Source: a virus
Virus record (IMG/VR): IMGVR_UViG_3300042397_000787
Direction: 5' to 3' (one strand)
DNA: 64,000 nucleotides
Below the pieces are notes generated by a model. That model was not told where the DNA came from. It did not search any database and saw only the letters and a program-made list of their open reading frames with translations. Below, piece by piece: positions 6,337 through 62,546 of this stretch; position 1 is the stretch's first letter, and each line of letters starts with the position of its first letter. The translations under genes and the position numbers were made by a program.

Positions 6337-6942
6337 TTATCCTGCATAAAATATATGATCACCAATTTTAGCTACTCTACGAAGATTCCAACCTGGACTT
6401 ACATAGTCGGCATGATAGAATAGAACATTTTTTCCTAATACGCCATGATTAGCCCCAGCGAACAATACCTTCTCAGCAACTTTCTTTGACTCAGCATATT
6501 GTTGCGCACTGCGGACACTCTTCTTTCCTTCGCATACCCATGAGAACTGACACACACGTTTTGTTCTCTGGTATACAACGGAGCATACGGATTTAGGAAA
6601 CTTGGGGCTATTTACCCGATTGATAGTGACAGCAGCAACGGCCAATTTGCCTTGAGTAGACTGGTTACCAGCCTCATAATAGATATTGTCTGCGAGACAC
6701 TTCAATTCTCTGTTATTTGCCAGACGAATATTTTGTGTCTGGATTCTTTGTTGTGTTACTTTACGTTGTTGTTCTTGGGCATCTTCTTTGATGTCCTGAA
6801 TTACTTCTCCGACGCCGAGGGAATATTCCCTTGCTTCTCTTTCGATGGCAGTTTCAGCATATGAATTAATTCCATATAAACTATAACTTAATAGTGTAAT
6901 AATCGAAAGAAACTTGAAAAACTTCTTATTAAAGGAAGTCAT
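6337..6942 (-). CDS. Cell wall hydrolase (SleB/Hydrolase_2 family) with N-terminal signal/TM segment
   Basis: CLADNIYYEA, AVAAVTINRV..FPKSVCSVVYQ, CQFSW, IGDHIFY. Confidence 0.92.
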   Translation of the reverse strand: MTSFNKKFFKFLSIITLLSYSLYGINSYAETAIEREAREYSLGVGEVIQDIKEDAQEQQRKVTQQRIQTQNIRLANNRELKCLADNIYYEAGNQSTQGKLAVAAVTINRVNSPKFPKSVCSVVYQRTKRVCQFSWVCEGKKSVRSAQQYAESKKVAEKVLFAGANHGVLGKNVLFYHADYVSPGWNLRRVAKIGDHIFYAG

Positions 6943-7012
6943 CTTATTTCCATTTTTTTGTTATACTTGAGAGGGTATTAACCAGTGACTCCCCACACTG
7001 ATTGTCCGAAGA

Positions 7013-7062
7013 CAAAAAATAACCCACTGTGCTTGCTGGTGTCAGGTCGCACAATGGGTCAT
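7013..7062 (-). terminator. Hairpin plus U-tract downstream of tmRNA
   Basis: TGACCCATTGTGC...GCACAGTGGGTTA followed by TTTTTT on the minus strand. Confidence 0.6.
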
Positions 7063-7064
7063 AC

Positions 7065-7493
7065 AACTATTTAGCATCCGTAGATTCTTACATCACTCAT
7101 TTCATCGTATAAACCAAACAGGTGATAGTTTTATTCTGTTTCGAGGGAAAACTATCAAAAACCCAATGAGATTATGCGGCTAGCGCATATCCTGCAAAGG
7201 CAACGTTATCGTTTGCATTTACGTTTAGTGGCACTTTGCCAAGCAATCAGTCTCGAACCGCCCTATTACACGAAAATCGAATTCCAAGGTCACCCCCATC
7301 AACAAGAAACTCATCTAGGCAAGTACCGCAGCAAAAATCATCTTCTATTATACGCGCTCTTAAATCTTCTAGGTTAGTATACTGAGAGTCACGTATGTCA
7401 CGACAACTGCAAATTACCATAATTTCCTCTTGGTGGAGGTGCGGGGAGTCGAACCCCGGTCTTTCCGCCTTTATTGTTGATTGTCAACAACTG
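7065..7493 (-). ncRNA. ssrA: tmRNA, circularly permuted two-piece (alphaproteobacterial type); outer ends approximate
   Basis: Acceptor piece with T-arm GGTTCGACTCC and CACCTCCACCA ends at 7431. It lies upstream of the 5' end GGGGGTG (7297), which pairs with CACCTCC including the G3:U Ala determinant. Tag ORF ANDNVAFAGYALAA* at 7216-7172. Confidence 0.93.
7247..7420 (-). CDS. Bfd-like [2Fe-2S] small protein (57 aa) starting in the tmRNA intervening segment (not in ORF track)
   Basis: AGAGGA RBS; MVICSCRDIRD...FCCGTCLDEF matches the C-x-C...C-x2-C pattern of bacterioferritin-associated ferredoxins. Confidence 0.6.
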   Translation of the reverse strand: MVICSCRDIRDSQYTNLEDLRARIIEDDFCCGTCLDEFLVDGGDLGIRFSCNRAVRD

Positions 7494-7499
7494 ATAATC

Positions 7500-7507
7500 T
7501 ATTTATA
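7500..7507 (-). promoter_or_regulatory. T4-type late promoter upstream of tmRNA
   Basis: TATAAATA on the minus strand. Confidence 0.7.
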
Positions 7508-7546
7508 CACTAGTTTGCTTTGGAAGTCAACAGTTTTTTATATTCT

Positions 7547-8113
7547 TCACGCCGCAGCATCGATTACAAATGACCAGAATGATGTGCCAGGGTAGAACGT
7601 AGCAGGTTTACCGAGTTGTTGCTCTAGTCGTTTTACGTTCTCAACTACGTCTGGCCAACCGGGTGGCCACACGACTTCTGGCCAGCCCTCCACATAGTCA
7701 TGGCCGCACAGTAGACCACCACTTTTTAGATTTCTCAGTCCATATTGAATGATATGCCAGTCATTTGGATTAGTGTGTGCGGCATCGACAAAGAATATAT
7801 CTGCAGGGTTGTTTACATATTCCGAGTATTTAAAATACGGACAGGCAGCGCGGATGCTATGAATATTTGGTATATCCTTAGTGTTCTTGTGGAACTCACC
7901 ATGGAAATCTGTGTCTGTCTGCGGGGCATAAAATGTGTCTACACAATATACATTTACAGAGGGATGGCAGGACTTTGCCCATGTATATGCGCTACGTCCG
8001 TAGAGACTGCCGATCTCCATGATGACTCCATTCTCTGGAACCTCATTCGCCCATTTCTCGATTTGATGAAGTTCTTGCTCGGTCATCCAACCGGGAATTT
8101 CTAAATTAACCAT
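7547..8113 (-). CDS. Class I SAM-dependent methyltransferase (Methyltransf_24-like)
   Basis: MEIGSLYGRS, FFVDAAH, GGLLCGHDY. Confidence 0.85.
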   Translation of the reverse strand: MVNLEIPGWMTEQELHQIEKWANEVPENGVIMEIGSLYGRSAYTWAKSCHPSVNVYCVDTFYAPQTDTDFHGEFHKNTKDIPNIHSIRAACPYFKYSEYVNNPADIFFVDAAHTNPNDWHIIQYGLRNLKSGGLLCGHDYVEGWPEVVWPPGWPDVVENVKRLEQQLGKPATFYPGTSFWSFVIDAAA

Positions 8114-8122
8114 TATATTATC

Positions 8123-8467
8123 CTATAGATTAAAATTGATACTCTCTCCGCAGCCGCAGCTACTAGAAGCAAGCGGTGCTTGTATTTCAATGACGCTACC
8201 AATAATATCAACTTTTTTATTAACGGTGCTACCTATAAGATATAGTTCCGACGGTCTATCCAGCCAGAACGTCCAATCATCATACTCTTGTGGAAAGTCA
8301 TCTTCTACGAGTTCGTCAGCACTCTTTACCAAATCCCACTTGTAACTGAACCCGGCACATCCACCTCCTGCGAGAGATAGTCGAACACCTAGTGCGTTAT
8401 TTGAAACTGAGACATTACGAAAATGCTCAAGTGCGGATTCCGTAAACTGTATGCGGTCTTTTATCAT
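8123..8467 (-). CDS. iscA: IscA/HesB family Fe-S cluster carrier
   Basis: GGGCAGFSY and C-terminal SSCGCGES motifs. Confidence 0.9.
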   Translation of the reverse strand: MIKDRIQFTESALEHFRNVSVSNNALGVRLSLAGGGCAGFSYKWDLVKSADELVEDDFPQEYDDWTFWLDRPSELYLIGSTVNKKVDIIGSVIEIQAPLASSSCGCGESINFNL

Positions 8468-8471
8468 CAAA

Positions 8472-9140
8472 CTATTTATTACGACTCGCTTCGAATAAAT
8501 CACGAGTTTCGATAAGTTTTTTGGCCCAGTTGTCGCGCTTTTCTACAAACACCTGAGGCTCATCGCCATCTACAGCAATCAAGATAACAAGAAAGGGAAC
8601 AGGAATACCAGTTCGTTCTTCATACATGATTGCATATGCAGCGGTCTGCATAAAGTAGGAACTGATATATTCCTTCTTCTTGGGCCGATTAGAAGTCTTA
8701 AAGTCGATTACGGCGCGAATACCATTGTATTCTCCGATACAGTCAACGCGACCAGCCATACGCAGGAAGTCGCTGTATAATGCCAGCTCTTGGCAGTGAA
8801 TGTTATCGATAGGTTCAAGAATTGACTTAAACTTAGTAAACATTTCCTTGTCGAGCAAGGACGCTCTCACGCTATCAAAATCGACTTCTTCATTCTTTAA
8901 ATATGCTTCGGTAAGTGTGTGTATTTTAGTACCGCGAGTAGAAGCCTGCTTAGAAATGCGGTCGGCTTCTTCTTCACCAACGCGCTCACGCCACTTGTTG
9001 ATGCCATCTTTATTCAGAACACCGAGAACAGTGGTAGCAGAGGGATATCCAACACCCGAGGCATTGACATAAACTCTGCTACCATCTTCTCTTGTTTCAT
9101 CTTGGGCGAAATCAGTATAATCATAGATCGTTTTAAACAT
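8472..9140 (-). CDS. PD-(D/E)XK exonuclease
   Basis: YPSATTVL, RGTKIH, AGRVDCI, IDFKTS, Q..AYA. Confidence 0.88.
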   Translation of the reverse strand: MFKTIYDYTDFAQDETREDGSRVYVNASGVGYPSATTVLGVLNKDGINKWRERVGEEEADRISKQASTRGTKIHTLTEAYLKNEEVDFDSVRASLLDKEMFTKFKSILEPIDNIHCQELALYSDFLRMAGRVDCIGEYNGIRAVIDFKTSNRPKKKEYISSYFMQTAAYAIMYEERTGIPVPFLVILIAVDGDEPQVFVEKRDNWAKKLIETRDLFEASRNK

Positions 9141-9146
9141 ATACTC

Positions 9147-9174
9147 TTATAACATGATTCGCATAGTTTGTCAA
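9147..9174 (-). promoter_or_regulatory. Early promoter with GANTC spacer
   Basis: TTGACA-AACTATGC-GAATC-ATG-TTATAA. Confidence 0.65.
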
Positions 9175-9179
9175 GTCTT

Positions 9180-9935
9180 TTATGCGTATCTCTCCTCATA
9201 TTCTAATCTGGCCAGAATATATTCTTTAACCAATTTGGACCTTACTATATCATGAACAGAAAACTCTACAGTTTTGAACGAGGGCATTAGTTCGGCGATA
9301 GCGATGAACTTTTGAAGTCCAGACATATCGGTCTTTTTATATAGATCAGTCTGTCGGAAATCTCCGCAGAATATGATCTTTGAGTTTCTGCCAATTCTGG
9401 TCATAATTGAATTTAATTCCATATCCGTCATATTCTGACATTCATCAACGATGACGATGGAATTATCTAGAGTGATACCACGAACAAATGAAGTGATCAT
9501 AAAGTTCACTGACTTTTGTTCTTGCAATCGCTGAAATGGCTGGATATGATTAAACAAATCCTCGCAGATTTCTACATAAGGTAACTGATAAACTTCTGTC
9601 TTTTCTTTTTCATCACCAGGTAGGTGACCAATTTCTCTTGATGGAACAGCAGAGCGGACTATTACTACTCGCTCAAATACTGTTTCTGGATCTAGTGCTT
9701 CTTCTAGTGCCTTAAAAAGCGCGATGTATGTTTTCCCTGTTCCTGCTACACCGTGAAGTAATATTGCTGCGGACTGTTGATTATAAAGTTCAAAAAATTG
9801 TCTCTGATTAAAGGTTTTTGGTTGAATATTTTTTAGGTCTTCGTATTTTACTTTGCATAGCTTACTCTTCTCTAGGGTTACGGGCGAGTCATTATTTGAG
9901 ACAACTTGTAAGGCGTTTTGTTTTCTTCTTGACAT
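9180..9935 (-). CDS. phoH: PhoH-like ATPase
   Basis: GVAGTGKT, IGHLPGD, RGITLD, VDECQN, TRIG, GD..QTD. Confidence 0.95.
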   Translation of the reverse strand: MSRRKQNALQVVSNNDSPVTLEKSKLCKVKYEDLKNIQPKTFNQRQFFELYNQQSAAILLHGVAGTGKTYIALFKALEEALDPETVFERVVIVRSAVPSREIGHLPGDEKEKTEVYQLPYVEICEDLFNHIQPFQRLQEQKSVNFMITSFVRGITLDNSIVIVDECQNMTDMELNSIMTRIGRNSKIIFCGDFRQTDLYKKTDMSGLQKFIAIAELMPSFKTVEFSVHDIVRSKLVKEYILARLEYEERYA

Positions 9936-9964
9936 AACAGTCCTTTGAGGTTTGAGGTTGATAC

Positions 9965-9997
9965 AAAAAAGGCGACACTGCAATAGCAGAGTCGCCT
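9965..9997 (-). terminator. Intrinsic terminator-like hairpin upstream of phoH
   Basis: AGGCGAC TCTGCTATTGCAGT GTCGCCT TTTTT. Confidence 0.6.
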
Positions 9998-10061
9998 AGT
10001 GCCGAGGGAGGCACGATGGATTCGGGAAGAGAAATCGGTATAACTGTCTTCATGTAGTTAT

Positions 10062-10610
10062 TTATTGTGTATCATCTTTCCACCAGCAAGGAATTTCACG
10101 ATTTTTCCATTTTGCCATAGTTTTTTTTGCGCCGATATAATAGTTACGATATGATTGTAAGGAATCACCTTGTACCTTGTATTCATCTGGCATCGCAGGC
10201 GTCGGCTGTGTTAGATAACTTACCGGAATATTTTTGGGTGGCTTGCGAAGAAAATAAACTAATCGGTCGGTCGCATGAATTTTACCATACCGATAAGTGT
10301 ATTCTGCCAGTAGGGATTGGAATAGACATACAAGCCAGTTATAATTATTGTTAGACTGGCGAACCCAGATAGCACTCGGATGATTGATATGTGTTGCTTT
10401 GTAGAGAACTGTTTCAAGGGTGTTGTCTTCCATACGCCAACGCTTGATTGAACGGCCATTCGCAGTTTTGTCTAGGTATTGTTCACCGTCGATTACGCGA
10501 TGTGCAGTAGATAACAGTTGTGCATATTCTAAGATCATCTTAACGACATGCTTGTCATTATGATATTCAGCACATTTGGAAACGTCACGATCCAAATAAA
10601 AGATATTCAT
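10062..10610 (-). CDS. Pyrimidine-dimer DNA glycosylase / DenV-like protein
   Basis: MNIFYLD, DKHVVKMILEYAQLLSTAH, HINHPS..W, EYTYRYGKIH, YRNYY. Confidence 0.8.
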   Translation of the reverse strand: MNIFYLDRDVSKCAEYHNDKHVVKMILEYAQLLSTAHRVIDGEQYLDKTANGRSIKRWRMEDNTLETVLYKATHINHPSAIWVRQSNNNYNWLVCLFQSLLAEYTYRYGKIHATDRLVYFLRKPPKNIPVSYLTQPTPAMPDEYKVQGDSLQSYRNYYIGAKKTMAKWKNREIPCWWKDDTQ

Positions 10611-17694: not shown

Positions 17695-18887
17695 TTTTCA
17701 GCCCAAGGATAGGTTTCAAACACATTCTGTTTTCTGATCTTATCAAGTAACTGTTGTTTCATAACAAAATTATTTTGAATAATAGGATTATGTAGATTAT
17801 CGGTTCTGGATTCCAGGTATTTGATGATAAATTCTACTGCTTGTTTATTTAAAGCATTAGTATTTTTCTGAACCTCAAAATATTCCCGCAATTCGTTCAA
17901 TCTAAGATTATAATTATCTTCGGGCATAACATCAGGCTGCAAAAAATCTGGACTATTAACAGGAATAACGGAACAGTGAATTCCAACCGTATCAAAGAAA
18001 CGAATCAAGTCTGCCATTGTATCCAAAGATAAGTTTTGTAATGTTGTGCTTATGGTAGCATGAATGTTTTGATGTTCTTGCATAATGGTTTTGTAAGTCA
18101 ATAAGTTCTTTTCGATTTTTTTCCACCTACCAGGAAATCTAATATATTCAAACGTTGACTTATAACCATCAATACTAAGGCCGAGATGAACTTCTCTAAA
18201 CTGTTTCCAGTAGTCGATAAATTCATACGGGTTGTTCATTCCGTTGGTATTATAGTGTAGCGCAATGTTTTTTGCCGCACCAGTCTCGCATAAAAATTGT
18301 AGTAGCTTAAGGTTTTCATCAATGATTAGCGGTTCACCGCCTATCAAATAAATTTGTTTGATAGTATGAATATGTTGTGACAATACCTCATTGATATCTA
18401 CGGCATCAATCCACTTTGTATCCGACCAACTAGACTGATAATATTGTTTTGCTTCCGGGTGTTCATCTACTTCCTTACGAATCAGAGAACTACTGAACGG
18501 CCCACACATTCTGCATTTAAGATTGCACTTGGCATCCAAATCAAATTCAACTTTTACAATACCAATAGGCTCTGGACTTTTTTCAGCCACAATCCTATCA
18601 TATTCTTTACGAAAGACTGAATTCGCATAATCTCTAAAACTCTTATTACCAGAGTCTTCGATATTCCAGCATCGTGAGCAAAGTTCTGGCTTATTCCCCT
18701 TTAACATTTCATCTCGCAGATACGACATGGTTTTTGTTTTCAGTAATGTATTCACATCATAGTTTTCTTTGTCTTTGATGTTTTCTTGAACTTGTTTTGA
18801 GCCAATCGCATTGCAACAAGGCCTAAATTCCCCGTGTGAGCCAATGCTCAAATTCATCCAGGGATATACGCAAATAGTATCTGACAT
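17676..18887 (-). CDS. Radical SAM protein (twitch-type N-terminal Cys domain)
   Basis: CVYPW..RPCC, CNLKCRMC, GGEPL, SIDG. Confidence 0.92.
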   Translation of the reverse strand: MSDTICVYPWMNLSIGSHGEFRPCCNAIGSKQVQENIKDKENYDVNTLLKTKTMSYLRDEMLKGNKPELCSRCWNIEDSGNKSFRDYANSVFRKEYDRIVAEKSPEPIGIVKVEFDLDAKCNLKCRMCGPFSSSLIRKEVDEHPEAKQYYQSSWSDTKWIDAVDINEVLSQHIHTIKQIYLIGGEPLIIDENLKLLQFLCETGAAKNIALHYNTNGMNNPYEFIDYWKQFREVHLGLSIDGYKSTFEYIRFPGRWKKIEKNLLTYKTIMQEHQNIHATISTTLQNLSLDTMADLIRFFDTVGIHCSVIPVNSPDFLQPDVMPEDNYNLRLNELREYFEVQKNTNALNKQAVEFIIKYLESRTDNLHNPIIQNNFVMKQQLLDKIRKQNVFETYPWAEKCLPKN

Positions 18888-20137
18888 TATTGTACCTCGT
18901 TTACGTGATTTCTATTATTACCCAATTCACCCTGATCCAGTTTATTGAATTCTAAACCACAACAAGAACTGCATTGATGACTGCGCATCGAACTACCACG
19001 CTCGAAACTCATCGGTAGATATCTTTGAAAATATGCAGTATTAATAATTTCTTCTAAAGTATGCTTATGAAGATCCAGTGAGTCCATACCACCATTAAGT
19101 TCGATCATTTTAAGCGAGTTATCATTAGGATTTGACCATTGCGCACCAAATCTCCATGGTTCTCCGCCTAGAAAACAACAAGGGAAAACATGACCTGTGG
19201 CAGACAAGAACACTTCGTTGTTTTTCTGGTGTTCATTAATCTTTGCTCGACACATAATACCCAAAGAGTTGTGTTTAATCTTAATTGTTTCGTTGGAGTC
19301 GGGATCATGATTTACTAAAAACTCTTCTGTGTTTTCAGGCATCAATCTACCAAATTCTTCATTTGTGATATATTGTGGAATAAGATTCTTTATTGCTTTT
19401 GCAAAAACAACATCATTTTGATGCTTTAGTCTCTCTTCTTCCGGTTGCTTGATGTAGTATGAGGAACCATCTGGATTTCTAACTCTGTAGTACCCTCTTC
19501 CGGCTGCATCATATCCTTGCCATCTAGTTGTTCTTTTAATATTGAAAGTTCTAAAATTCAATTCTTTTGCGATGGCCTTGGCTTCGTCAATTTGATGCTC
19601 ATTAAAATCAAACGCGATAAAGTCCCATTTAGCTATGCCGCCTGCGGCAGTAAATGCTTTCATATTAGCATGAATTTTAGCAAAATTGGTATTTCTTCTG
19701 TATAGGTGATTTGTGTCCCATAAGCCATCAACAGAAAAAGTTACACCATCATCTCGTTGATTTTCTCCGTTGAGAATTTGACCTAGTTCTTTCCACCAAC
19801 CTTCCGATCTAGCACTAGCATTTGTGTGCATTACTAATGAGAGATATGGGTTATTTTCTCGCAAATACTTGAATATTGGCAAAGTATCTTTAGCAGTAAT
19901 AGGATCTCCATAATTCCCACATGCATACACCCGTCTAAGTTGTGAAACAAACGGAATAGGAAACCATTCTTTGAATTGTTCTAGAGAAATATCTGTTAGA
20001 TTTAGAAGAGGATTGATTTCTTTACCCTGATTGATATAACGAGGACACATAGGACATCCTGCATTACATTTATTAGATAATTCAATGTGCATCGCAGTAA
20101 TATTGCGCCACGATTTGTATAGTGGTTCAACTTGCAT
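18887..20137 (-). CDS. Radical SAM protein with C-terminal SPASM-like domain
   Basis: HIELSNKCNAGCPMC, CGNYGDP, FSVDGL, FPCC. Confidence 0.92.
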   Translation of the reverse strand: MQVEPLYKSWRNITAMHIELSNKCNAGCPMCPRYINQGKEINPLLNLTDISLEQFKEWFPIPFVSQLRRVYACGNYGDPITAKDTLPIFKYLRENNPYLSLVMHTNASARSEGWWKELGQILNGENQRDDGVTFSVDGLWDTNHLYRRNTNFAKIHANMKAFTAAGGIAKWDFIAFDFNEHQIDEAKAIAKELNFRTFNIKRTTRWQGYDAAGRGYYRVRNPDGSSYYIKQPEEERLKHQNDVVFAKAIKNLIPQYITNEEFGRLMPENTEEFLVNHDPDSNETIKIKHNSLGIMCRAKINEHQKNNEVFLSATGHVFPCCFLGGEPWRFGAQWSNPNDNSLKMIELNGGMDSLDLHKHTLEEIINTAYFQRYLPMSFERGSSMRSHQCSSCCGLEFNKLDQGELGNNRNHVNEVQ

Positions 20138-32373: not shown

Positions 32374-33108
32374 ATGGCAGGTGCAGCGGCAGAAAGACAA
32401 GAAAATACTTTTGTTAAGTCAATTAATGATGCGGTCAAGAAAAATCCGGCTGGAATTAAGATAAAAGCCGGTTCTCAGACTATTTCTGGAGTAATTAAAG
32501 CGGAAAAATTCACCGGAAGACAAGTTTCTGGCTCTGAACCCTATATTGATGTCAATTTACATCTGGCTGACGGTAAAACTACAGTAGGCATCTCTATGAA
32601 AGGTGAGACTGCGCCCTCATTAGCGGGTGGCGGACTGAAAGGCATCAATTTAGCCGTCCCAGGACTTGCGAATAAGTTTATGAAAGCAGTTTTAGCGCAT
32701 CTAAAGAAAAAAATTAAGCCCGGAGACAAAGTTCCGGACTGTTATGGTAAGATTAGTGACCAACATAAAGTAACAATTGTGGTTGGTAACAAAGATATGG
32801 GTGGCCCAATTGACTACATGTATATTGGCAACATGACTCCCGTATCTAACTACAACAAAAGCACCAACACACTTTCGTTTAACAATGGAAACTTCTATGA
32901 AGCAACCAAATATGCTAAGTCACATGACCTATATTTCAGACTTCGTGCTAGAAGAGAAGACCAAGTGTTTGATCCAACTGCAAAAGACAGTATGAACGTG
33001 CCTAAAATCTATTCTAAGTCACCAAGTAAAGGGGACTCCGCCGGTAGAATAGTTGTTACCGACAAAGTCCCCAATAATGCATTACAAAATGTAGTTAATA
33101 TTGTTTAA
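32374..33108 (+). CDS. Late protein, possible PD-(D/E)XK nuclease fold
   Basis: AAGGAAG RBS; ERQE...PYID...GISMK pattern. Confidence 0.5.
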   Translation: MAGAAAERQENTFVKSINDAVKKNPAGIKIKAGSQTISGVIKAEKFTGRQVSGSEPYIDVNLHLADGKTTVGISMKGETAPSLAGGGLKGINLAVPGLANKFMKAVLAHLKKKIKPGDKVPDCYGKISDQHKVTIVVGNKDMGGPIDYMYIGNMTPVSNYNKSTNTLSFNNGNFYEATKYAKSHDLYFRLRARREDQVFDPTAKDSMNVPKIYSKSPSKGDSAGRIVVTDKVPNNALQNVVNIV

Positions 33109-34043
33109 ACGAAAACGTCTACGTCTAAATCCTTAGAATACTTTGTATCGGGCGGCAGAGTAATCAGCTTCATACCATAATTGTTGACGCCTTCGGGAAG
33201 AACAACACCCTCTTTAAGAGTTAGTGTGTTCTTCTTGAAGGGTGTATAGTCAACATAATGATGCCAACGACCATAACGCCATACAACACGCGCAACATCT
33301 GGGTGCATATCAGCCAACATCTGTGACTTGTTGATGGTGCCCTTCTCGTGGTAACGCTTACCTTCTACTTCTTCACCCTCTTCCAAGAATTCTTTGTGAT
33401 AGAACTCTGCGGTATTACCACCCTTGACGGTTTGTGTAGCAACTTTACCCTGCAAGAACGCATTGAACTGCACCGTGCAGTCACCATCTTTGAGGACGCG
33501 AAGGCAAATATCAGTATCTTCATTGTAACGACCGCGCCAGCGATGCTTACAATCGTTACGGATTAGCAATGTCGAGTAGATACGAGTGTTGGCGACATAA
33601 GGAGGATACTTCTGGTTCGGTGCAATGAAGAACCGATACTGCGGACCAGCAATGTAGAGGTTCTCATAACGGTCAAAGAAGTCTTCCATCACTTTGAAGA
33701 ACACACCAGACTCCACGCGAATACGTTCGTTGCGATACAGACGATAGAAATCTGAAATGTTATCATCTAGAACCCAGTGGGCATCTGCACCGATACTGAT
33801 AGAGTGGTCCCATGCCCAGTTTCTAGCGCGACCGGGGCCATCACCGTGATTGGAGAACGGCGCAACCAGCAGAGTGACACCAGAAAGTCCGAAATTGGTT
33901 ATCGCATCTTTGTAGGGCTGCAAATCTTGAGGTTCGATAATGATATAATGCGGCACTCTCATACGAGAAAGTGACCGCGAAGTAATCATAGTATCGGCAC
34001 GACCCTTAGAAACAATGTAAACGGGGTATTTTGGGTTAGTCAT
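33105..34043 (-). CDS. TET-associated/GREB1-like GT-A glycosyltransferase
   Basis: YPVYIVSKGRA, ARNWAWD, HWVLDDNI, RYNEDTD, KGGNT, RWHHYVDY. Confidence 0.8.
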   Translation of the reverse strand: MTNPKYPVYIVSKGRADTMITSRSLSRMRVPHYIIIEPQDLQPYKDAITNFGLSGVTLLVAPFSNHGDGPGRARNWAWDHSISIGADAHWVLDDNISDFYRLYRNERIRVESGVFFKVMEDFFDRYENLYIAGPQYRFFIAPNQKYPPYVANTRIYSTLLIRNDCKHRWRGRYNEDTDICLRVLKDGDCTVQFNAFLQGKVATQTVKGGNTAEFYHKEFLEEGEEVEGKRYHEKGTINKSQMLADMHPDVARVVWRYGRWHHYVDYTPFKKNTLTLKEGVVLPEGVNNYGMKLITLPPDTKYSKDLDVDVFV

Positions 34044-35118
34044 AAAACAAATGATCCAATGATGTTGATTTCCATCTCGCCAAACTATCAGCGAACATAT
34101 TATTTAGGTTGAGAATCCAGTTCTCTTTACTGTGCTTGGCTTTAGTTCTATTAGATATATCACACCTTTGCTCAAAAGTCAAGCCTTTCAGTGTATTAAT
34201 AACATCTTCTAGTTCTTCTTGCTTGACATTCGTAGGAACCATGATATAGTCAGTATCACTATCAGCAACAGCTTGGCTACCATGTGTACCACTACTATCT
34301 GTAACAAGCACCAGAGGTAGTCCTCTTGTCAAGGCTTCTAATGCAGTAATGCCCCATGACTCCACAGGACAAGTAGAAACGTAAACAGAACCAGTTGCCA
34401 TTACTGCCATGGTATCATGGTGCTTCAAACCGCGAATTGTATCTCTTGGTGTTTCCCAATGAGCATTCTTCTCTGCATATTCTTTCTGTGTATCACTATC
34501 AAATAGAGGAATACTTGTTAGAACACAAGACTTTAGCGCAGACACTTTAAGTTTGTTGTGAAGAAAGAATGGATTCTTAGTAGGGTCCGTGCGACCAACT
34601 GTCACCGCATCAAAGTGTTTGTTTTCAGATACTTGTTCATCGCCGTTAGCAAAGGCTGAGTTGATATAACCATAAGCATTCAAAACATCATGGCCTACGA
34701 TACGCTTAGAGATTGCATTCATCTTACTGTGTTGGTCTTTAGAGACGAAGTAAATGGAACCACCATTAGCAGCGAACTCTTCTTTGGCTTTGATGGATTC
34801 CACGTTGTAGATAGACCGAATACCAGGCGAGTGATTAAGCCACACCACCGGTAAATCAAACTGTTGAAATGCTACTGTATACGCATGACTGAAATGATTA
34901 GTGAAGATAATGTCTGGCTTATGCTCATTCACAGCCCGTTGCATGATATCACCTGTTCTACGTTCCATTCTGTCTTCGAATGTAATGTAAACGGGTATCA
35001 CGCCTTCGATGTTCTCATACACCAGCTTCTGGAATAACTCCACACCACCAAGCACAACATCCGACTCAAGTCGGACATTCTTATCTTTGTGCTGGATGAC
35101 GGGCATTAGTATTCTCAT
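34036..35118 (-). CDS. GT-B (GT4-like) glycosyltransferase
   Basis: GGVE, VGR.DP.KNP, ESWGITALEALTRGLP. Confidence 0.85.
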   Translation of the reverse strand: MRILMPVIQHKDKNVRLESDVVLGGVELFQKLVYENIEGVIPVYITFEDRMERRTGDIMQRAVNEHKPDIIFTNHFSHAYTVAFQQFDLPVVWLNHSPGIRSIYNVESIKAKEEFAANGGSIYFVSKDQHSKMNAISKRIVGHDVLNAYGYINSAFANGDEQVSENKHFDAVTVGRTDPTKNPFFLHNKLKVSALKSCVLTSIPLFDSDTQKEYAEKNAHWETPRDTIRGLKHHDTMAVMATGSVYVSTCPVESWGITALEALTRGLPLVLVTDSSGTHGSQAVADSDTDYIMVPTNVKQEELEDVINTLKGLTFEQRCDISNRTKAKHSKENWILNLNNMFADSLARWKSTSLDHLFYD

Positions 35119-35726
35119 TCGGCTTCAATCCAGCGCAGAAGATAATTCGGTGTCCGTTCTAGCTTGGGGTGCCAGATTGCTTTAGACTTATCCGTCAGCA
35201 CCTGGTCAATGCGCCGCGAGAACTCTTCATAGTCCTCAAGCCGACGAAACTTCACAATAACCGAACGAATTGGTCCGTTATCTTCTAGATACTCAAACTC
35301 TGGCATCCCCACCCAATGCTCTTTCCAAGCACTCTCTTCGGTATCATTCACTTCCACTTCAAGCGAAGCTAGATTCTTATCCGTTCGCGGAGCGCATAGG
35401 CGCCTATCCACATCCACCAATGGTGCTTGGCCATCATCAAACAGCGCAGCACGAGGGTCTGCCAAAGGGTACCAGAAGTCTTTAAGATTACTCGCTACGA
35501 TATACCCGATACGCTTAGAGAGGTCTACGATATCTTCTACGGTGCGGAAGTGGACGTAGATAGCCTTCCACAGGTCTTGGTCTACCTTCTTCTTACCAGA
35601 ATTATCCGCAAGCGGAGTATCTATCACCCCTACCAGATGCTCAAGGGACATGCGATACTCGTCTTGCATCCGCGCATTCTGGTCGAGATAGTTTTCATAA
35701 TCACCAGATTCTTTTACTTCACTCAT
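35115..35726 (-). CDS. Hypothetical protein with internal duplication, in the glycosyltransferase cluster
   Basis: IYVHFRTVED...WYP / VIVKFRRLED...WHP; HWVGMPEF. Confidence 0.7.
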   Translation of the reverse strand: MSEVKESGDYENYLDQNARMQDEYRMSLEHLVGVIDTPLADNSGKKKVDQDLWKAIYVHFRTVEDIVDLSKRIGYIVASNLKDFWYPLADPRAALFDDGQAPLVDVDRRLCAPRTDKNLASLEVEVNDTEESAWKEHWVGMPEFEYLEDNGPIRSVIVKFRRLEDYEEFSRRIDQVLTDKSKAIWHPKLERTPNYLLRWIEAE

Positions 35727-35757
35727 AACATCTCCTTATTCCACCAATATAACACTA

Positions 35758-36621
35758 TTAGCTATACAAGTCAAGCATTTTCCTAATACCTTCTCTTAAT
35801 TTCGTAGAAGGACCAAACCCAAGGTCTTTGCGCAATTTACTACCATCCATACGCTGGTAAGGTATCTCAGAAAAATCCTTCTTATTATATAGGATAGGTA
35901 ATTTGGTACCCATCTCCTCTTGGATTATATCAATAACCTCTCTCGTAGAGTAATTCTCCTCACTCGTCACGTTATAAGCGCCAGCTAGATTCTCCCTCCT
36001 CGCAAACGCCATAATAACCTCACACAGGTCGCCAATCCACAGATAGTCACGGCGCATCTCCTCAGACCCCGCCCATATCATAGGCGCCTCACCGCACCGC
36101 AGCCGCGCCACCGTACCAGGTATCAGCCGCGTAAGGTTATTATCGTGCGGCCCGTAAGTATTCGTAAGCCGCAAAGAGATTACGTCCATACCATAATAGT
36201 CACGGTAGAAATCACACAGTTCCGCAGCCAACACCTTGGACTTCTCATAAGGAGAAAAGCCATTCAATGGTGCAGTCTCCGTCAATGGTTTCAGACTTTG
36301 CGCACCATATACCTTATCAGACTCCAGCACAATCACTGGAACACCAAGACCTCGAGCGGATTCCAATACACTAGCAGTAGCAAGAGTATTACTGAGGAAC
36401 GCACCCATGGGATTAGTCGCACACACCGATACAATAGAATTGCCAGCGCAGTGGACAATCGCCTCGATATTACTCATATTATCAACGGCTACGCGAAACT
36501 CCGTGGTCGCAACATCTAGATCGGTTACAACCCATTCCACAGTGGGTTGATGGTATCTCAGAGACTTACCAATGAAGCCTTCATGCCCAGTCAATAATAT
36601 CACGGCGTCAACTCTTTCCAC
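35758..36621 (-). CDS. NAD-dependent epimerase/dehydratase (extended SDR)
   Basis: TGHEGFIG, SDKVYG, YEKSK, NTYGP. Confidence 0.92.
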   Translation of the reverse strand: MERVDAVILLTGHEGFIGKSLRYHQPTVEWVVTDLDVATTEFRVAVDNMSNIEAIVHCAGNSIVSVCATNPMGAFLSNTLATASVLESARGLGVPVIVLESDKVYGAQSLKPLTETAPLNGFSPYEKSKVLAAELCDFYRDYYGMDVISLRLTNTYGPHDNNLTRLIPGTVARLRCGEAPMIWAGSEEMRRDYLWIGDLCEVIMAFARRENLAGAYNVTSEENYSTREVIDIIQEEMGTKLPILYNKKDFSEIPYQRMDGSKLRKDLGFGPSTKLREGIRKMLDLYS

Positions 36622-37106
36622 TCTTCCGGGCTAATGACGTTACAATTTTTTCTAAAGTATCGATACTGTATCAACTCTTCTCTTAGACCCGATGAACCTT
36701 TAGCATCATGTCTATTAACATTGTTACTGTTAGATACCAGAGTACCCTCATCCATGGGTAAGTAATCACTCAAGTTTTCGAAAGGAATTATCTCAAAGTC
36801 AACATAGCGTGGAATATTGATAAGATATGGCTGTCTGTGAACCCATATCCAAAAGTCTTTATCCATACCGTTGTGAGGTTCATGATGGATAAACCAACCC
36901 GTTGTCTCGAACACCTCAGCAGACTTCCATCTGTCTATAGGGTTTCGTAGCACAAGAACTCTTCTCGTAGTAGAATTTATCCACTCGTTCCATCGGTCAT
37001 GCATACCCCTTGGCACCTCTTCGAAGCCAAAGTATTTGCGCATCGATGTATGTCCACATCTAGTGTTAGACAATACATGGACATTACCGTTGTCGTGTAT
37101 GAACAT
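36600..37106 (-). CDS. Sulfotransferase-like protein
   Basis: TRCGHTS (5'-PSB-like) and VLRNPIDRWKS (3'-PB-like) motifs. Confidence 0.55.
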   Translation of the reverse strand: MFIHDNGNVHVLSNTRCGHTSMRKYFGFEEVPRGMHDRWNEWINSTTRRVLVLRNPIDRWKSAEVFETTGWFIHHEPHNGMDKDFWIWVHRQPYLINIPRYVDFEIIPFENLSDYLPMDEGTLVSNSNNVNRHDAKGSSGLREELIQYRYFRKNCNVISPEEWKELTP

Positions 37107-39717: not shown

Positions 39718-40167
39718 TCATTTGTTGGGTACCTGGGCTAGTAGTTCAAGATAGAATTGATTATACTTGGCCAGACGGGCGATATCCTTTTCGGTAACAC
39801 CCTTGAGGCGACGGATATCGGTGTTGTGGCGAAGGTCTGACATCTTCACTCTCATGGCATCTTCGTTGGCCATTACCTCTTGCTTGTATTGGTCATAGGA
39901 TTGACCTGGCATCTTGGTGAGTGCGGAGACTGCGGCTAGAACACGTTCGGTGCAACCAATGGCGCGTAGGTCGTCCCAGGTGGTATCGGTATCTTCGATA
40001 ACGTCATGAAGCAATGCGATGCACTGGAGTTCTTCGTCTGTTGTCTTGAGGTAATGCATCACCTTCATTGGGTGAAGGATGTATGGGTTACCACCGCGGT
40101 CAAACTGACCTGCATGGGCATTCGTGGCTAGGACGAGGACTTTACCGAGTAGTTCACCTTTTTTCAT
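39718..40167 (-). CDS. HD-domain (p)ppGpp hydrolase-like protein (SpoT-HD/Mesh1)
   Basis: AHAGQ.D..G.PYI.HP, ALLHDVIEDT, VK.SD..HN. Confidence 0.85.
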   Translation of the reverse strand: MKKGELLGKVLVLATNAHAGQFDRGGNPYILHPMKVMHYLKTTDEELQCIALLHDVIEDTDTTWDDLRAIGCTERVLAAVSALTKMPGQSYDQYKQEVMANEDAMRVKMSDLRHNTDIRRLKGVTEKDIARLAKYNQFYLELLAQVPNK

Positions 40168-40222
40168 AATCAAATCTCTTTCTCTATATTATTATAGTAG
40201 ACGATTCGAGACCAAATGTCAA
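40168..40222 (-). promoter_or_regulatory. Early promoter cassette
   Basis: TTGACA-TTTGGTCTC-GAATC-GTC-TACTAT. Confidence 0.75.
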
Positions 40223-49374: not shown

Positions 49375-50052
49375 TTATTTTTTGTAGGCAGCATCTTCCT
49401 TCTTGCCGATAGGATTACGGACTTCGGCAGATGCTATCTTACGGATGTGCTTGTGAACCTGAGTGAGGCCATGCTCGTCGGTGTGGTCATTGTCCACAAT
49501 GTGCATATGTTCTGCGCCGAAATGCTTCTGGAAGTGGCCGATGTTGCCCTGCACTTGCTTGTGCATTCTCTCGACTTCATGGTGCGGCAGACTACGTTCG
49601 CGCTGGTCGTTGCGCTTCTTGGCTGTCTCTAGTGAGGTGTTTACGAATACCATGTGAGTATCGTAGCCTGCTTTACGTAGGCGTTCGGAGTGCTTTCTAA
49701 TCTTCTCCGGGTCTTTACCTGTGCCATCAATCACTAGACCAAGGCGACCTTTAACGTAATGGTGTTCACGCTTATGGGTTAGTTCCTTAGCATGGTCACG
49801 AATCTCTTGACCCTTCTTGGAGTAGACATTTTCAGGAGTGGCTTTCAGGCCATGCTTCTTCATACCCTTCTCGAATAGGTCATCCGAGTTGACTTGCTTG
49901 AAGCCAAGACCATGTGTGGTCTTCTTAGATACATAAGACTTACCTGAGCCGGGACCACCTGCTAGGAAGATAGCCTTACGTCTAGCTGGGTCATGGATAC
50001 CCTCATCTAGGACTTCTTCTACGAGGTTGATAAAATCGGCAAATGATAGCAT
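49375..50052 (-). CDS. Zeta-toxin-like P-loop kinase with capsid-targeting-like leader
   Basis: MLSFADF...LDEG; AGGPGSGKS, NSDD, VIDGTG, FVNTSLE.A..RN..R.R; TATAAATA at 50073-50080. Confidence 0.75.
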   Translation of the reverse strand: MLSFADFINLVEEVLDEGIHDPARRKAIFLAGGPGSGKSYVSKKTTHGLGFKQVNSDDLFEKGMKKHGLKATPENVYSKKGQEIRDHAKELTHKREHHYVKGRLGLVIDGTGKDPEKIRKHSERLRKAGYDTHMVFVNTSLETAKKRNDQRERSLPHHEVERMHKQVQGNIGHFQKHFGAEHMHIVDNDHTDEHGLTQVHKHIRKIASAEVRNPIGKKEDAAYKK

Positions 50053-57989: not shown

Positions 57990-58159
57990 TAATTCAACTT
58001 TCCATCATAAGTTCGCAGCCAAGGCTGACCAAAGACATACTTGGCTTCTAGGTCATCAGCAACACCGTGCCAATACGCTTGAAACCATTCACTCTTAGCT
58101 TTATACGCTATTTCACGGCATTTGTCAATAGATTTAAATATCTTTGCATAATTAGTCAT
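57989..58159 (-). CDS. Hypothetical protein
   Basis: Coupled ORF (MTNYAK...). Confidence 0.45.
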   Translation of the reverse strand: MTNYAKIFKSIDKCREIAYKAKSEWFQAYWHGVADDLEAKYVFGQPWLRTYDGKLN

Positions 58160-58583
58160 TTTCTTTTGTTGCCTTATACAGCATGACATTCGCTTCTCTA
58201 AACATCAATTCGGTAATGTCCCAGTTAAACGTATCTTCTCGGTCAGATTTATAACAAATGACCTTCTTGATGCCGCGCTGGATGATGCTCTTGGCGCACT
58301 CGTTGCACGGCATCAAAGGTACATACATTGTGCAACCCTCAACCGACATGGGAGAGTTGTCTAGTGCATTGCGCTCGGCATGAGCCACAAACAGGTGCTT
58401 GGTGGGTCGGTCTTCGTAGCGTTTTGCCAGGTCCTTGACGCCACGCGGAAACCCATTGTAGCCTATTGAGATAATACGATTGCGGTCATCCACAATAACT
58501 GCACCAACTTTGGTGCGAGGATCATACGACCATTCGCCAATATGGTCGGCTAGGTCAAGAAACCTCTGACACCATTTAGACAT
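58152..58583 (-). CDS. cd: dCMP deaminase
   Basis: KVGAVIV, GYNGFPRG, HAERNA, PCNEC. Confidence 0.93.
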   Translation of the reverse strand: MSKWCQRFLDLADHIGEWSYDPRTKVGAVIVDDRNRIISIGYNGFPRGVKDLAKRYEDRPTKHLFVAHAERNALDNSPMSVEGCTMYVPLMPCNECAKSIIQRGIKKVICYKSDREDTFNWDITELMFREANVMLYKATKEND

Positions 58584-58686
58584 TCAACTGAAACTCCAAA
58601 TCACAGTTATCATGGCAATCAAAATCAGAATACCGAAACATCCTGATGCAGTCAACCCATCCCACATTGCTCGTTGTCGAGGATGA

Positions 58687-58899
58687 TTAGTCATAATCAA
58701 CACCTTCATCTTGCTTGCGACCCATATAGTGGTCGTCGCTTACGCAATGAAACTGTGCCTGGAGTTTGCTATTGATAATGGTGCGAGTGACATCACCCGC
58801 GAACTTTTCACATTGCTCCTTAGATGCAGTCTCGTAGACATCCTTGGCCACAAATTCGCCCTCTTGCGTGAACAAAAATACTATAAGCCAATAACTCAT
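58687..58899 (-). CDS. Hypothetical protein
   Basis: ORF in operon. Confidence 0.5.
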   Translation of the reverse strand: MSYWLIVFLFTQEGEFVAKDVYETASKEQCEKFAGDVTRTIINSKLQAQFHCVSDDHYMGRKQDEGVDYD

Positions 58900-59102
58900 T
58901 TCACAACTCCATACAGAAGGATGGCGGTAATGAAACCATTAACTACCATCAGAGGTTTATCTTGCATCTTATATGCTGCGTAGCCCCAAGCGGCGGCACC
59001 GATGACCGATAGGATCAGGTCTACCTGGTGAAACTCAAATGCCCGACAAGTGGCAGCAAGGATGACACACGCGGTACCGAACCATTTAATAATCTCAAGC
59101 AT
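58896..59102 (-). CDS. Small multi-TM membrane protein
   Basis: KW.GT...W.Y......D..L..VN; hydrophobic. Confidence 0.55.
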   Translation of the reverse strand: MLEIIKWFGTACVILAATCRAFEFHQVDLILSVIGAAAWGYAAYKMQDKPLMVVNGFITAILLYGVVK

Positions 59103-59244
59103 ATTTTTCTTCTTCCAACATAAGTGCAATACCAGCGATGAACATCATCATACCAAAAGCGGCTTGCAAGGCAAAACGAAGAAAACTAGCATCTTCAGGA
59201 ACACACATCACAAACAGACCGGCAAACAACAAAACATATTTCAT

Positions 59245-59305
59245 AACGAATCACTTTCTTTTCTCAGCTTATAATCTACTATAGCATATTCTGAGAAAAT
59301 GTCAA
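59245..59305 (-). promoter_or_regulatory. Early promoter cassette
   Basis: TTGACA...GCTATA...GAAAGTGATTCGTT-ATG. Confidence 0.8.
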
Positions 59306-59625
59306 GCGGTAATTTCATCAAAACCAAACGTAGCACAACGGAACAGTTTTCCGTCTACCTCGAGGATGTCGCCTACTGACATCGAGGAGCAGGGACCGAG
59401 TTTCTCAACCGTAGCACCTTCCCAAAGATTCATGGCAGCGAATGCTTCTTCCATATCATTGGTATCAACGTTAGCAACGTGGGCGTAATACTGGAAGTTC
59501 TCAGTCTTGAAGGGCGACATCGGCCACGAACGGTCAAAATACGCTTTGATGCGGTCACTGGTTTCGCCGTTATTTACAGCCGCGATTTCAGCATCGGTCA
59601 GTTGAATTTGGTACACCTTAATCAT
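59302..59625 (-). CDS. YodL-like early protein
   Basis: VYQI..., F...N, SMSVGDI...GF. Confidence 0.6.
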   Translation of the reverse strand: MIKVYQIQLTDAEIAAVNNGETSDRIKAYFDRSWPMSPFKTENFQYYAHVANVDTNDMEEAFAAMNLWEGATVEKLGPCSSMSVGDILEVDGKLFRCATFGFDEITA

Positions 59626-59687
59626 AACGAATCACTTTCTCTTTTCTGTCTACTATTACATCCTAGCAGATTCGCAGGGAAAGTCAA
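59626..59687 (-). promoter_or_regulatory. Early promoter cassette
   Basis: TTGACT-TTCCCTGC-GAATC-TGC-TAGGAT...GAAAGTGATTCGTT-ATG. Confidence 0.85.
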
Positions 59688-59844
59688 GTGCTAATTTACC
59701 AATGATGAATGACATTTGCCACAAGAAAAATGTTTGCGATAATGGCCTGACAAATCAGAAAGGTCCGAATCCATGCTATCTTGTCGGATTCGCTATTACA
59801 CGGAGAGGCTTTTTCACCTAAGGCTTTTGACCATATTCGCCACA

Positions 59845-62143: not shown

Positions 62144-62232
62144 TGGCGGAACATCAGGGAGTCGAACCCTGTATACCCTTTAGAGGTATTACGCATTAGC
62201 AGTGCGTTGCATTACCGTCCTGCCCATGTTCC
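62144..62232 (-). tRNA. tRNA-Ser(GCT)
   Basis: CT-GCT-AA loop, long variable arm, G73-CCA. Confidence 0.92.
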
Positions 62233-62238
62233 TAAAAT

Positions 62239-62313
62239 TGGTAGCCCGAACGGGTTTCGATCCCGCTTCTCCGCCTTGAAAGGGCGGTGTCCTAGCCACT
62301 AGACGACCGGGCC
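62239..62313 (-). tRNA. tRNA-Glu(TTC)
   Basis: CT-TTC-AA loop, CCA. Confidence 0.9.
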
Positions 62314-62316
62314 ATT

Positions 62317-62391
62317 TGGAGCGGAAGAGCGGATTCGAACCGCCGACCATCTCGTTGGCAACGAGAAGCTCTACCACTGAGCTACTTCCGC
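62317..62391 (-). tRNA. tRNA-Gly(GCC)
   Basis: TT-GCC-AA loop, U73-CCA. Confidence 0.93.
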
Positions 62392-62395
62392 ATTA

Positions 62396-62473
62396 TGGAG
62401 CGCCGAGCCGGATTCGAACCGGCGGTTTTACGGATTTGCAATCCGTTGCGATGGACCACTCCGCCATCGGCGC
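62396..62473 (-). tRNA. tRNA-Cys(GCA)
   Basis: TT-GCA-AA loop, U73-CCA. Confidence 0.92.
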
Positions 62474-62474
62474 T

Positions 62475-62546
62475 TGGTACCAGCAGGTGGTAATGATCCA
62501 CCCAAACTAACCTTATGAGAGTCAGTCGAACACCTGTTCTACTGGT
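62475..62546 (-). tRNA. Atypical tRNA(CAT) with non-canonical D and T loops
   Basis: ACCAGTA/TGCTGGT acceptor stem, CT-CAT-AA loop, T-loop ATCATTA, CCA. Confidence 0.65.

Follow-up and report, generated by a model that had tools for sequence, protein, structure and literature searches.

A strand-specific zone free of TCA and ACA across two adjacent early genes of a freshwater T4-like phage

Phages can escape nucleases by losing the short words that these enzymes recognize or by keeping them in one orientation, as in the EcoP15I orientation bias of phage T7. In T4, RegB, an RNase with the short motif GGAG, gives the cistrons of early mRNA different rates of decay, and we know of no complete purge of a motif from particular T4 genes. 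Here we describe a zone of 1239 nucleotides (nt) in IMG/VR virus record IMGVR_UViG_3300042397_000787, an uncultured freshwater T4-like virus of which a stretch of 64,000 nt was analysed (hereafter the window). The zone (35154–36392, minus strand) runs through two adjacent genes, one for a sugar epimerase/dehydratase and one for a protein of 203 amino acids (aa), and its sense (non-template) strand holds 0 TCA and 0 ACA where about 42 would be expected. We write WCA for TCA or ACA on the sense strand and TGW for TGA or TGT on the plus strand. Restriction-site avoidance is genome-wide and concerns words of 4–8 bp on both strands, save for the type III orientation bias, whereas here a 3-mer is avoided locally and on one strand. 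RegB is comparable in that a T4-type phage gives the cistrons of early transcripts different lifetimes through a short-motif RNase, although its motif differs.

Escherichia coli MazF cuts RNA at ACA, and messages engineered to lack ACA are translated selectively under MazF induction (PMC13107127). The likeness is that a sense-strand trinucleotide is removed synonymously in all phases, the engineered site-free message surviving the endoribonuclease; the zone differs in being natural, in being essentially complete over 1.2 kb, in lying in two genes of a double-stranded DNA phage and in avoiding TCA as well. In single-stranded RNA coliphages ACA is under-represented, which has been attributed to MazF (PMC12151602), but that bias is mild (ratios 0.64–0.92) and genome-wide, whereas the zone is local. 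T4 endonuclease IV (DenB) is an enzyme of the T4 family that is single-strand-specific and strand-polar and prefers 5'-TCA-3', with ACA cut less well (PMC1635256, PMC2095790). It acts on DNA rather than RNA, and with a preference rather than a strict WCA requirement. The published enzyme also cuts some GCA and GCT (PMC1635256); in the zone TCA and ACA are both at zero and GCA and CCA are normal. T4 shields its own DNA by replacing all of its cytosine; the window phage avoids the sites instead. Site avoidance to escape nucleases and engineered ACA-less genes are already known, and a literature search found no account of a double-stranded DNA phage in which particular genes have naturally, near-completely and on one strand only been cleared of a trinucleotide.

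The zone and its codon-preserving null models

The plus strand of the window carries 2148 TGW sites, about one per 30 nt. The longest interval without one, bounded by the TGT at 35151 and the TGA at 36393, measures 1242 nt; those ranking next are 263, 236, and 216 nt long. From the window-wide density, 41.7 sites would be expected inside the longest gap (Poisson P ~1e-18 per interval), and it was the single most extreme gap in the window when all 1000 IUPAC 3-mers were compared. A first-pass annotation, made from the letters of the sequence, had described about 1.24 kb without TGA or TGT on the plus strand between 35154 and 36392, across two genes and an intergenic gap, with several tens of sites expected. 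The interval proved exact, and the elements it spans are the 3' 610 nt of the epimerase gene (from codon 71, with the start taken as 36603), a 31-nt spacer and most of the 203-aa gene, ending 36 nt short of the stop codon of the latter.

Within the zone the plus strand has WCA at a normal 39–52 per kb, so the avoidance is strand-specific, as the annotation had also held. On the sense strand CCA (16) and GCA (14) occur at their expected counts, which makes the avoided word exactly W-C-A. The G+C content of the zone is 47–51 per cent, compared with about 41 per cent in its surroundings. About twenty-two lake-water metagenome runs (2020–2024) contain the stretch, and contigs from two lake-water runs not flagged as its source (X21 and X22) match 35407–36804 and 35321–36611 with 0 differences. 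The sequence is therefore real and not an assembly artefact.

Synonymous codons were resampled from window-wide usage with the protein sequence kept, in 2000 simulations. The 203-aa gene has 1 WCA against 13 expected (z −4.4; simulated minimum 4), and the epimerase gene has 3 against 22–23 (z −5.7; simulated minimum 11). Permuting each gene's own codons still yields 8.9 and 10.9 sites, respectively. These are the only depleted open reading frames (ORFs) among the sixty-three of the window, none of the other sixty-one being low (lowest z −2.0). The codon-shuffled null that the first-pass annotation had proposed thus leaves two genes, with no simulation near the observed counts. Depletion is present in all three codon phases of both genes; together with the clean 31-nt spacer, this shows that codon or tRNA usage is not the cause.

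Codon alignments with undepleted relatives show how the sites were lost. Examples include GAT CAA to GAC CAG, GAA CAT to GAG CAT, GTT CAT to GTC CAC, and ACA to ACG, all of them synonymous. WTA and WCG, the possible products of single mutations, are not specifically enriched. Several synonymous routes of removal without an enriched class of product indicate selection rather than a single mutational (deaminase-type) process. Strand-coordinated hyper-editing (by APOBEC or another deaminase, or by a diversity-generating retroelement) was rejected for the same reasons, given the lack of a dominant mutation type and the several routes.

Maintenance of the avoidance in related phages

The relatives of the window phage have T4-type gp23, UvsY, and UvsW, and related contigs are 130–171 kb long. 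Comparison of orthologous regions, which had also been suggested at first pass, shows the avoidance in four lineages of the epimerase gene and twenty-one alleles of the 203-aa gene. The four epimerase lineages (the window with loci L015 and L017; L016; L019; L011) differ by about 20–30 per cent in nucleotide sequence, and in each the 3' three-quarters of the gene is WCA-free, in zones of 630–1400 nt. The window and L011 epimerases share 70 per cent of residues, with the same codon at only 56 per cent of the identical ones; each gene has 3 WCA, compared with 29 in the outgroup L001 (64 per cent identity) and 18 in L018 (57 per cent). Judged from these alignments, the avoidance has outlasted an extensive turnover of synonymous sites in these lineages. 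All three leftover sites in the window epimerase fall within the first 209 nt of the gene, in a WCA-bearing 5' part at 36393–36575 (minus strand; plus-strand TGA/TGT at 36393, 36548, and 36573). Two of them are common to L015, L016, or L019 and are accordingly old and tolerated.

The twenty-one alleles of the 203-aa gene with at least 84.6 per cent identity are WCA-poor, mostly with 1 site, and five of them carry 3–5 WCA, mostly in the first 123 nt. Alleles at or below 75 per cent identity have 16–19 each. The single ACA kept in the window gene is the codon for Thr192 (35151–35153, minus strand), which forms the sharp 3' edge of the zone 36 nt before the stop. All aligned clean alleles share this codon, as do most normal alleles, with ACG in L013. 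The clean clade comprises seventeen distinct sequences with 13 per cent mean divergence and at least 286 substitutions, of which six created a WCA against about 23.6 expected (8.2 per cent of random changes; P ~1e-5). So few new sites imply that the avoidance is still enforced.

Clean alleles of the 203-aa gene occur in several backgrounds, with or without the epimerase and with two types of downstream gene, and no correlation was found between a clean allele and which type of glycosyltransferase lies downstream or which type of convergent gene is present. The convergent gene of the window encodes 290 aa and gave a weak R-HinP1I-like lead; its counterparts in relatives are of two barely alignable types.

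The position of the clean side relative to the promoter of the 203-aa gene varies. This predicted sigma-70-type early promoter (35746–35774, minus strand; TTGACT, a 17-nt spacer, and TATATT, with TG before the −10; 10/12 matches) occupies the 31-nt spacer behind the epimerase gene. In L011, L016, and L019 the epimerase is clean and the 203-aa homologue has 16–18 WCA, so that the clean side lies upstream of the promoter only; in L002 and L006–L008 it lies downstream only, and in the window on both sides. The −35 hexamer of the window is TTGACT and hence WCA-free. In relatives with only one clean gene it is TTGACA, whose ACA bounds the zone, and in L006–L008 the zone begins at that ACA. In L004 the 203-aa gene is preceded by a further 345 nt without WCA (567–912), which extend into the 3' half of a homologue of the 168-aa gene that lies upstream in the window.

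We scanned about 1.06 Mb of related loci for both WCA-free and TGW-free stretches. The long zones (at least 13 sites expected) were the 203-aa alleles, the epimerase zones and one independent sense-strand zone of 507 nt in L013 (3580–4087; about 16 sites expected), and these loci held no other clean 3-mer zone. The L013 zone starts exactly at the ACA of a TTGACA-17-TAGTAT promoter, runs through a small hydrophobic ORF that had not been called and then through a 66-aa gene, and continues 36 nt into the next gene; its small genes have no homologues in the other loci. In the complete 171.6-kb relative (G001) and two other large contigs, the zone at the 203-aa gene is the only one on a sense strand. 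Other long gaps there (G001 18848–19487 and G002 59038–59792) were set aside as low-complexity protein repeats of opposite sense. Low-complexity segments that give large gaps for many 3-mers are found at 2895–3181 of the window (in the ORF at 1423–3792, plus strand), at G001 18370–19950 (Ala/Gly-rich), and at G002 58269–59750 (Tyr-Thr-Gly-Ser repeats); they are compositional and unrelated to the zone.

These comparisons bear on whether a motif has been selected against at all. Chance, base composition, codon usage, recent transfer, or hyper-editing could be invoked, as the zone is richer in G+C than its surroundings and phage genomes are mosaic. Yet counts as low as those observed never arose under the codon-preserving nulls, the approximately 1.06 Mb of relatives and three large genomes contain no wider WCA-free donor, and new WCA are still excluded in the clean clade while synonymous routes were used and single-mutation products are not enriched. 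An origin without selection on the motif is hardly credible, and chance, composition, transfer, and hyper-editing are ruled out by the codon nulls, the donor scan and the substitution test. Purifying selection has cleared the sense strand of these two neighbouring early genes of WCA and continues to do so. The first-pass proposal of strong local selection against a polar 3-mer now has the support of the codon nulls, the synonymous routes, the diverged lineages and the substitutions of the clean clade.

Selection could in principle act on an antisense (plus-strand) RNA from which UGA and UGU must be absent, perhaps because a UG-specific interferase would otherwise cut it; this RNA would start near 35150 and end loosely within the epimerase gene. 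The sharp edge at 35151 and the fuzzy far edge would suit such a transcript, and there are MazF homologues with UG-type motifs (PMC13107127). Against it, no acceptable plus-strand promoter was found upstream of 35151, the zones of relatives begin at sense-strand promoters, and there is no conserved antisense ORF or Rfam family. We regard an antisense RNA as very improbable.

The operon and the target of selection

The two depleted genes belong to a minus-strand operon with the order 168-aa gene, epimerase/dehydratase, 203-aa gene, GT-B glycosyltransferase and TET-associated glycosyltransferase (TAGT). The 168-aa gene (36600–37106, minus strand) has no function assigned and is not depleted (21 WCA against 17 expected). 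The NAD-dependent sugar epimerase/dehydratase (35758–36603, minus strand) matches Pfam GDP_Man_Dehyd (8e-36) and Epimerase (3e-34); its ORF as listed begins at a GTG at 36621, and the likely start is the GTG at 36603, which aligns with the MILLTG start of L011. Downstream of the 203-aa gene (35115–35726, minus strand) lie the GT-B gene (34036–35118, minus strand; Pfam Glycos_transf_1), with 50 WCA against 43 expected, and the TAGT gene (33105–34043, minus strand; Pfam TAGT), with 35 against 30.5. In the window, L011, L017, and L019, the GT-B and TAGT genes have WCA slightly above the codon-resampled expectation (z +0.7 to +2.5). Conservation between lineages is 86–99 per cent for TAGT and 62–95 per cent for the epimerase and the 203-aa protein.

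The 203-aa protein had no match in Pfam, PHROGs, or PDB sequence searches, Atlas look-ups returned only unnamed viral clusters, and neither the zone nor the protein had a relative among cultured phages by megablast and tblastn. The protein consists of two tandem copies of a domain of about 75 aa that has no annotation and the motif W..HW.GMPEF ... F..EDY.EF ... K.IW.P; 1207 cluster representatives match at E ≤ 1e-3. The domain was located at 35115–35726 of the window (minus strand), at L020 6001–6348, and at L102 2704–3903. Other T4-like phages have single-domain homologues immediately upstream of TAGT, and Aeh1p093 of Aeromonas phage Aeh1 carries the domain as an N-terminal fusion to TAGT (E 1e-7). 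From this adjacency and fusion, the 203-aa protein appears to be a dedicated partner of the DNA glycosyltransferase TAGT, and the domain is a candidate new family of DNA-glycosyltransferase accessory domains. AlphaFold2 gave a poor model of the entire protein (predicted local distance difference test, pLDDT, 51); a model of the C-terminal domain (74 sequences, pLDDT 83) is mostly coil and had no match by Foldseek or VIA-align.

Given this partnership, the 203-aa protein could itself read WCA together with TAGT, so that its own gene or transcript and the neighbouring gene lost the motif and avoided sequestration in cis or auto-repression. Since its domain neighbours TAGT in many T4-like phages and is part of the same protein in Aeh1, a DNA-reading role is plausible, and the zone is centred on the 203-aa gene in most lineages. 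The alleles of L011, L016, and L019 argue the other way, with 16–18 WCA in the 203-aa homologue and only the epimerase clean; avoidance is missing from more distant phages that have this partner domain, and the domain model has no recognizable nucleic-acid-binding fold. Self-avoidance of this kind seems improbable to us.

The observations call for an agent that recognizes W-C-A on one strand and makes each site costly in these two genes alone. An endoribonuclease in the infected cell that cuts single-stranded RNA at WCA is the likeliest reason for the purge, in a tentative assessment that stays somewhat short of even. We infer an RNA target, a nuclease as the agent and a benefit to expression. 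The agent would follow the logic of a MazF-type interferase with wider specificity, either host-encoded or an unrecognized phage enzyme. The epimerase and 203-aa segments of the operon mRNA would survive while the WCA-rich flanking cistrons would be cut, and the sugar-donor enzyme and the partner of the DNA glycosyltransferase would be expressed more or for longer. An RNA target is favoured because the avoidance is confined to two of sixty-three genes, because transcribed genes carry every zone on their sense strand, because zones start at promoters (L006–L008, L013), and because MazF and ACA-less messages are a direct precedent. Moreover, genes of one operon differ, GT-B and TAGT being normal or enriched in four lineages, which is more natural for a post-transcriptional agent than for a property of a DNA region.

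The phage also encodes its own transfer-messenger RNA (tmRNA), which would fit heavy truncation of mRNA, as circumstantial evidence only. The permuted tmRNA gene (7172–7492, minus strand) is WCA-free in the RNA sense over its 3' two-thirds (7167–7383, 216 nt, about 7 sites expected). This stretch ranks fourth in length among the TGW gaps of the window and is not significant alone. A cluster of tRNA genes for Ser, Glu, Gly, and Cys (62154–62522) has 368 nt without a plus-strand WCA, i.e. no TGW in the tRNA sense, which probably reflects constraints on tRNA sequence. A general avoidance of WCA in RNA is ruled out, as the phage tRNAs carry WCA normally.

Several observations weigh against an RNA target. 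We know of no interferase that is exactly W-C-A-specific. Three relatives, one of them complete (171.6 kb, with a clean allele), gave no PemK/MazF match, and a RegB Pfam search of the relatives was empty, although it is uninformative because the controls gave no match either. The conserved Thr192 ACA is predicted to be unpaired in the consensus fold of nine lineages, with no protective hairpin predicted; since a cut there would leave a non-stop mRNA, it should be the most strongly selected site under a model in which a single hit kills the message. The first 100–330 nt of the epimerase ORF retain 3–6 WCA in four lineages, some of them shared or old, so the epimerase mRNA is not fully immune. 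The other sixty-one ORFs, the tRNAs and most early genes are undepleted, which means that the agent is no general threat to phage transcripts, and nothing explains why only the epimerase and 203-aa genes should matter. A metatranscriptome (X23) and a run labelled as cDNA (X24) held contigs of relatives only (85–95 per cent alike) and are uninformative on RNA ends or levels.

The main rival places the target in DNA. WCA on the non-template strand would be the preferred site of an enzyme acting on single-stranded DNA, and would be purged wherever cutting, priming, or adduct formation came at a cost. That strand would often be exposed here, whether in a transcription bubble, in an R-loop formed behind the strong 203-aa promoter, or at a replication origin of the T4 R-loop type. 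Candidates for the enzyme are a dC-specific endonuclease resembling T4 endonuclease IV, a nickase that cuts frequently, a primase, and an enzyme that modifies bases. The endonuclease, encoded by denB, acts only on single-stranded DNA, cuts 5' of dC, and favours 5'-TCA-3' 3.6-fold over ACA (PMC1635256). The phage is itself T4-like, with T4-type genes in its relatives and with TATAAATA sites and clamp-tail motifs noted by the first readers, and primases are the classic enzymes with strict, strand-polar recognition of trinucleotides. The geometry of the zones is also consistent with a DNA target. Their edges disregard ORF limits, with the sharp 3' edge of the window zone lying 36 nt before a stop codon, its 5' edge fuzzy within the epimerase gene, and the L013 zone running 36 nt into the next gene. 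Their lengths from the promoter are alike (about 500–620 nt), the clean stretch of L004 enters a different upstream gene by 345 nt, and with TTGACT instead of TTGACA at −35 the non-coding promoter DNA of the window is clean too. Phage T-dioxygenases with an NTG preference exist (PMC13229309), and the T of TGW could conceivably be a site of modification on the template strand.

Other features of the locus are difficult to reconcile with a DNA target. The gene-by-gene contrast inside one operon is hard to derive from a property of a DNA region, and the clean side is not consistently placed relative to the promoter (upstream of it in L011, L016, and L019, downstream in L002 and L006–L008, and on both sides in the window). 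About fifteen other early promoters of the window are not followed by a zone, and the G-rich, R-loop-prone skew of the sense strand is not specific to clean alleles. No denB-like gene was recognized in PHROG scans of thirty window ORFs, in which no search was aimed at DenB, and an enzyme like endonuclease IV should not cut virion DNA if its cytosine is modified. Searches of relatives for a ThyA-type hydroxymethylase were empty, as were those for Tet_JBP, which had no match in the window cluster (Pfam) or in three relatives and none in the control genomes either. Pfam misses some phage 5mYOX enzymes (PMC13229309). For the complete relative (G001, comprising L103–L111), six-frame searches gave no match to Tet_JBP, the ThyA family, or PemK. 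On this evidence we hold a DNA target to be unlikely, if less so than self-avoidance or an antisense RNA.

The first-pass annotation had offered a list of possible agents, among them an RNase such as MazF and a primase, nicking, terminase, or modification motif. MazF/PemK, RegB, and Tet_JBP were not found in the complete relative, with blank controls for Tet_JBP and RegB. Because depletion affects two genes of an operon whose downstream genes are normal or enriched, a target at the transcript level or linked to transcription is favoured over a terminus or packaging locus.

At the corresponding locus (6751–10092), between the epimerase and csgF, the more distantly related L018 carries a gene for a Tet_JBP dioxygenase of 458 aa together with a DruA-like gene. 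By its gene content, the locus appears to be a swappable DNA-modification cassette, with the dioxygenase in L018 and the 203-aa/GT-B/TAGT set, without a recognizable dioxygenase, in the window. Elsewhere in the early region, all on the minus strand, are genes for a deoxycytidylate (dCMP) deaminase (58152–58583), a zeta-toxin-like P-loop kinase (49375–50052), and an HD-domain phosphohydrolase (39718–40173), which may be parts of nucleotide or DNA-modification metabolism.

Significance of the zone

Motif avoidance is normally weak and genome-wide. Here it is near-absolute, strand-specific, limited to two genes, and maintained in wild phage populations. The zone can be read as the footprint of an undescribed enzyme, with a readable W-C-A specificity on single strands, and it names the genes whose expression or integrity would matter most under that enzyme, namely an accessory pair for DNA glycosylation. 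One possibility, which we place clearly short of even, is that freshwater T4-like phages or their hosts use an undescribed W-C-A nuclease or marking enzyme that acts on single strands, and that these are the first natural 'interferase-proof' or 'nuclease-proof' genes. The partner protein and the sugar-donor enzyme would then still be made while other messages or exposed strands are cut. If the target is DNA, the zone would mark a promoter-driven R-loop or a region of replication origin. If it is RNA, natural selection would have reached the same trick as engineered ACA-less expression systems, and the locus might yield a new three-base-specific nuclease as a tool.

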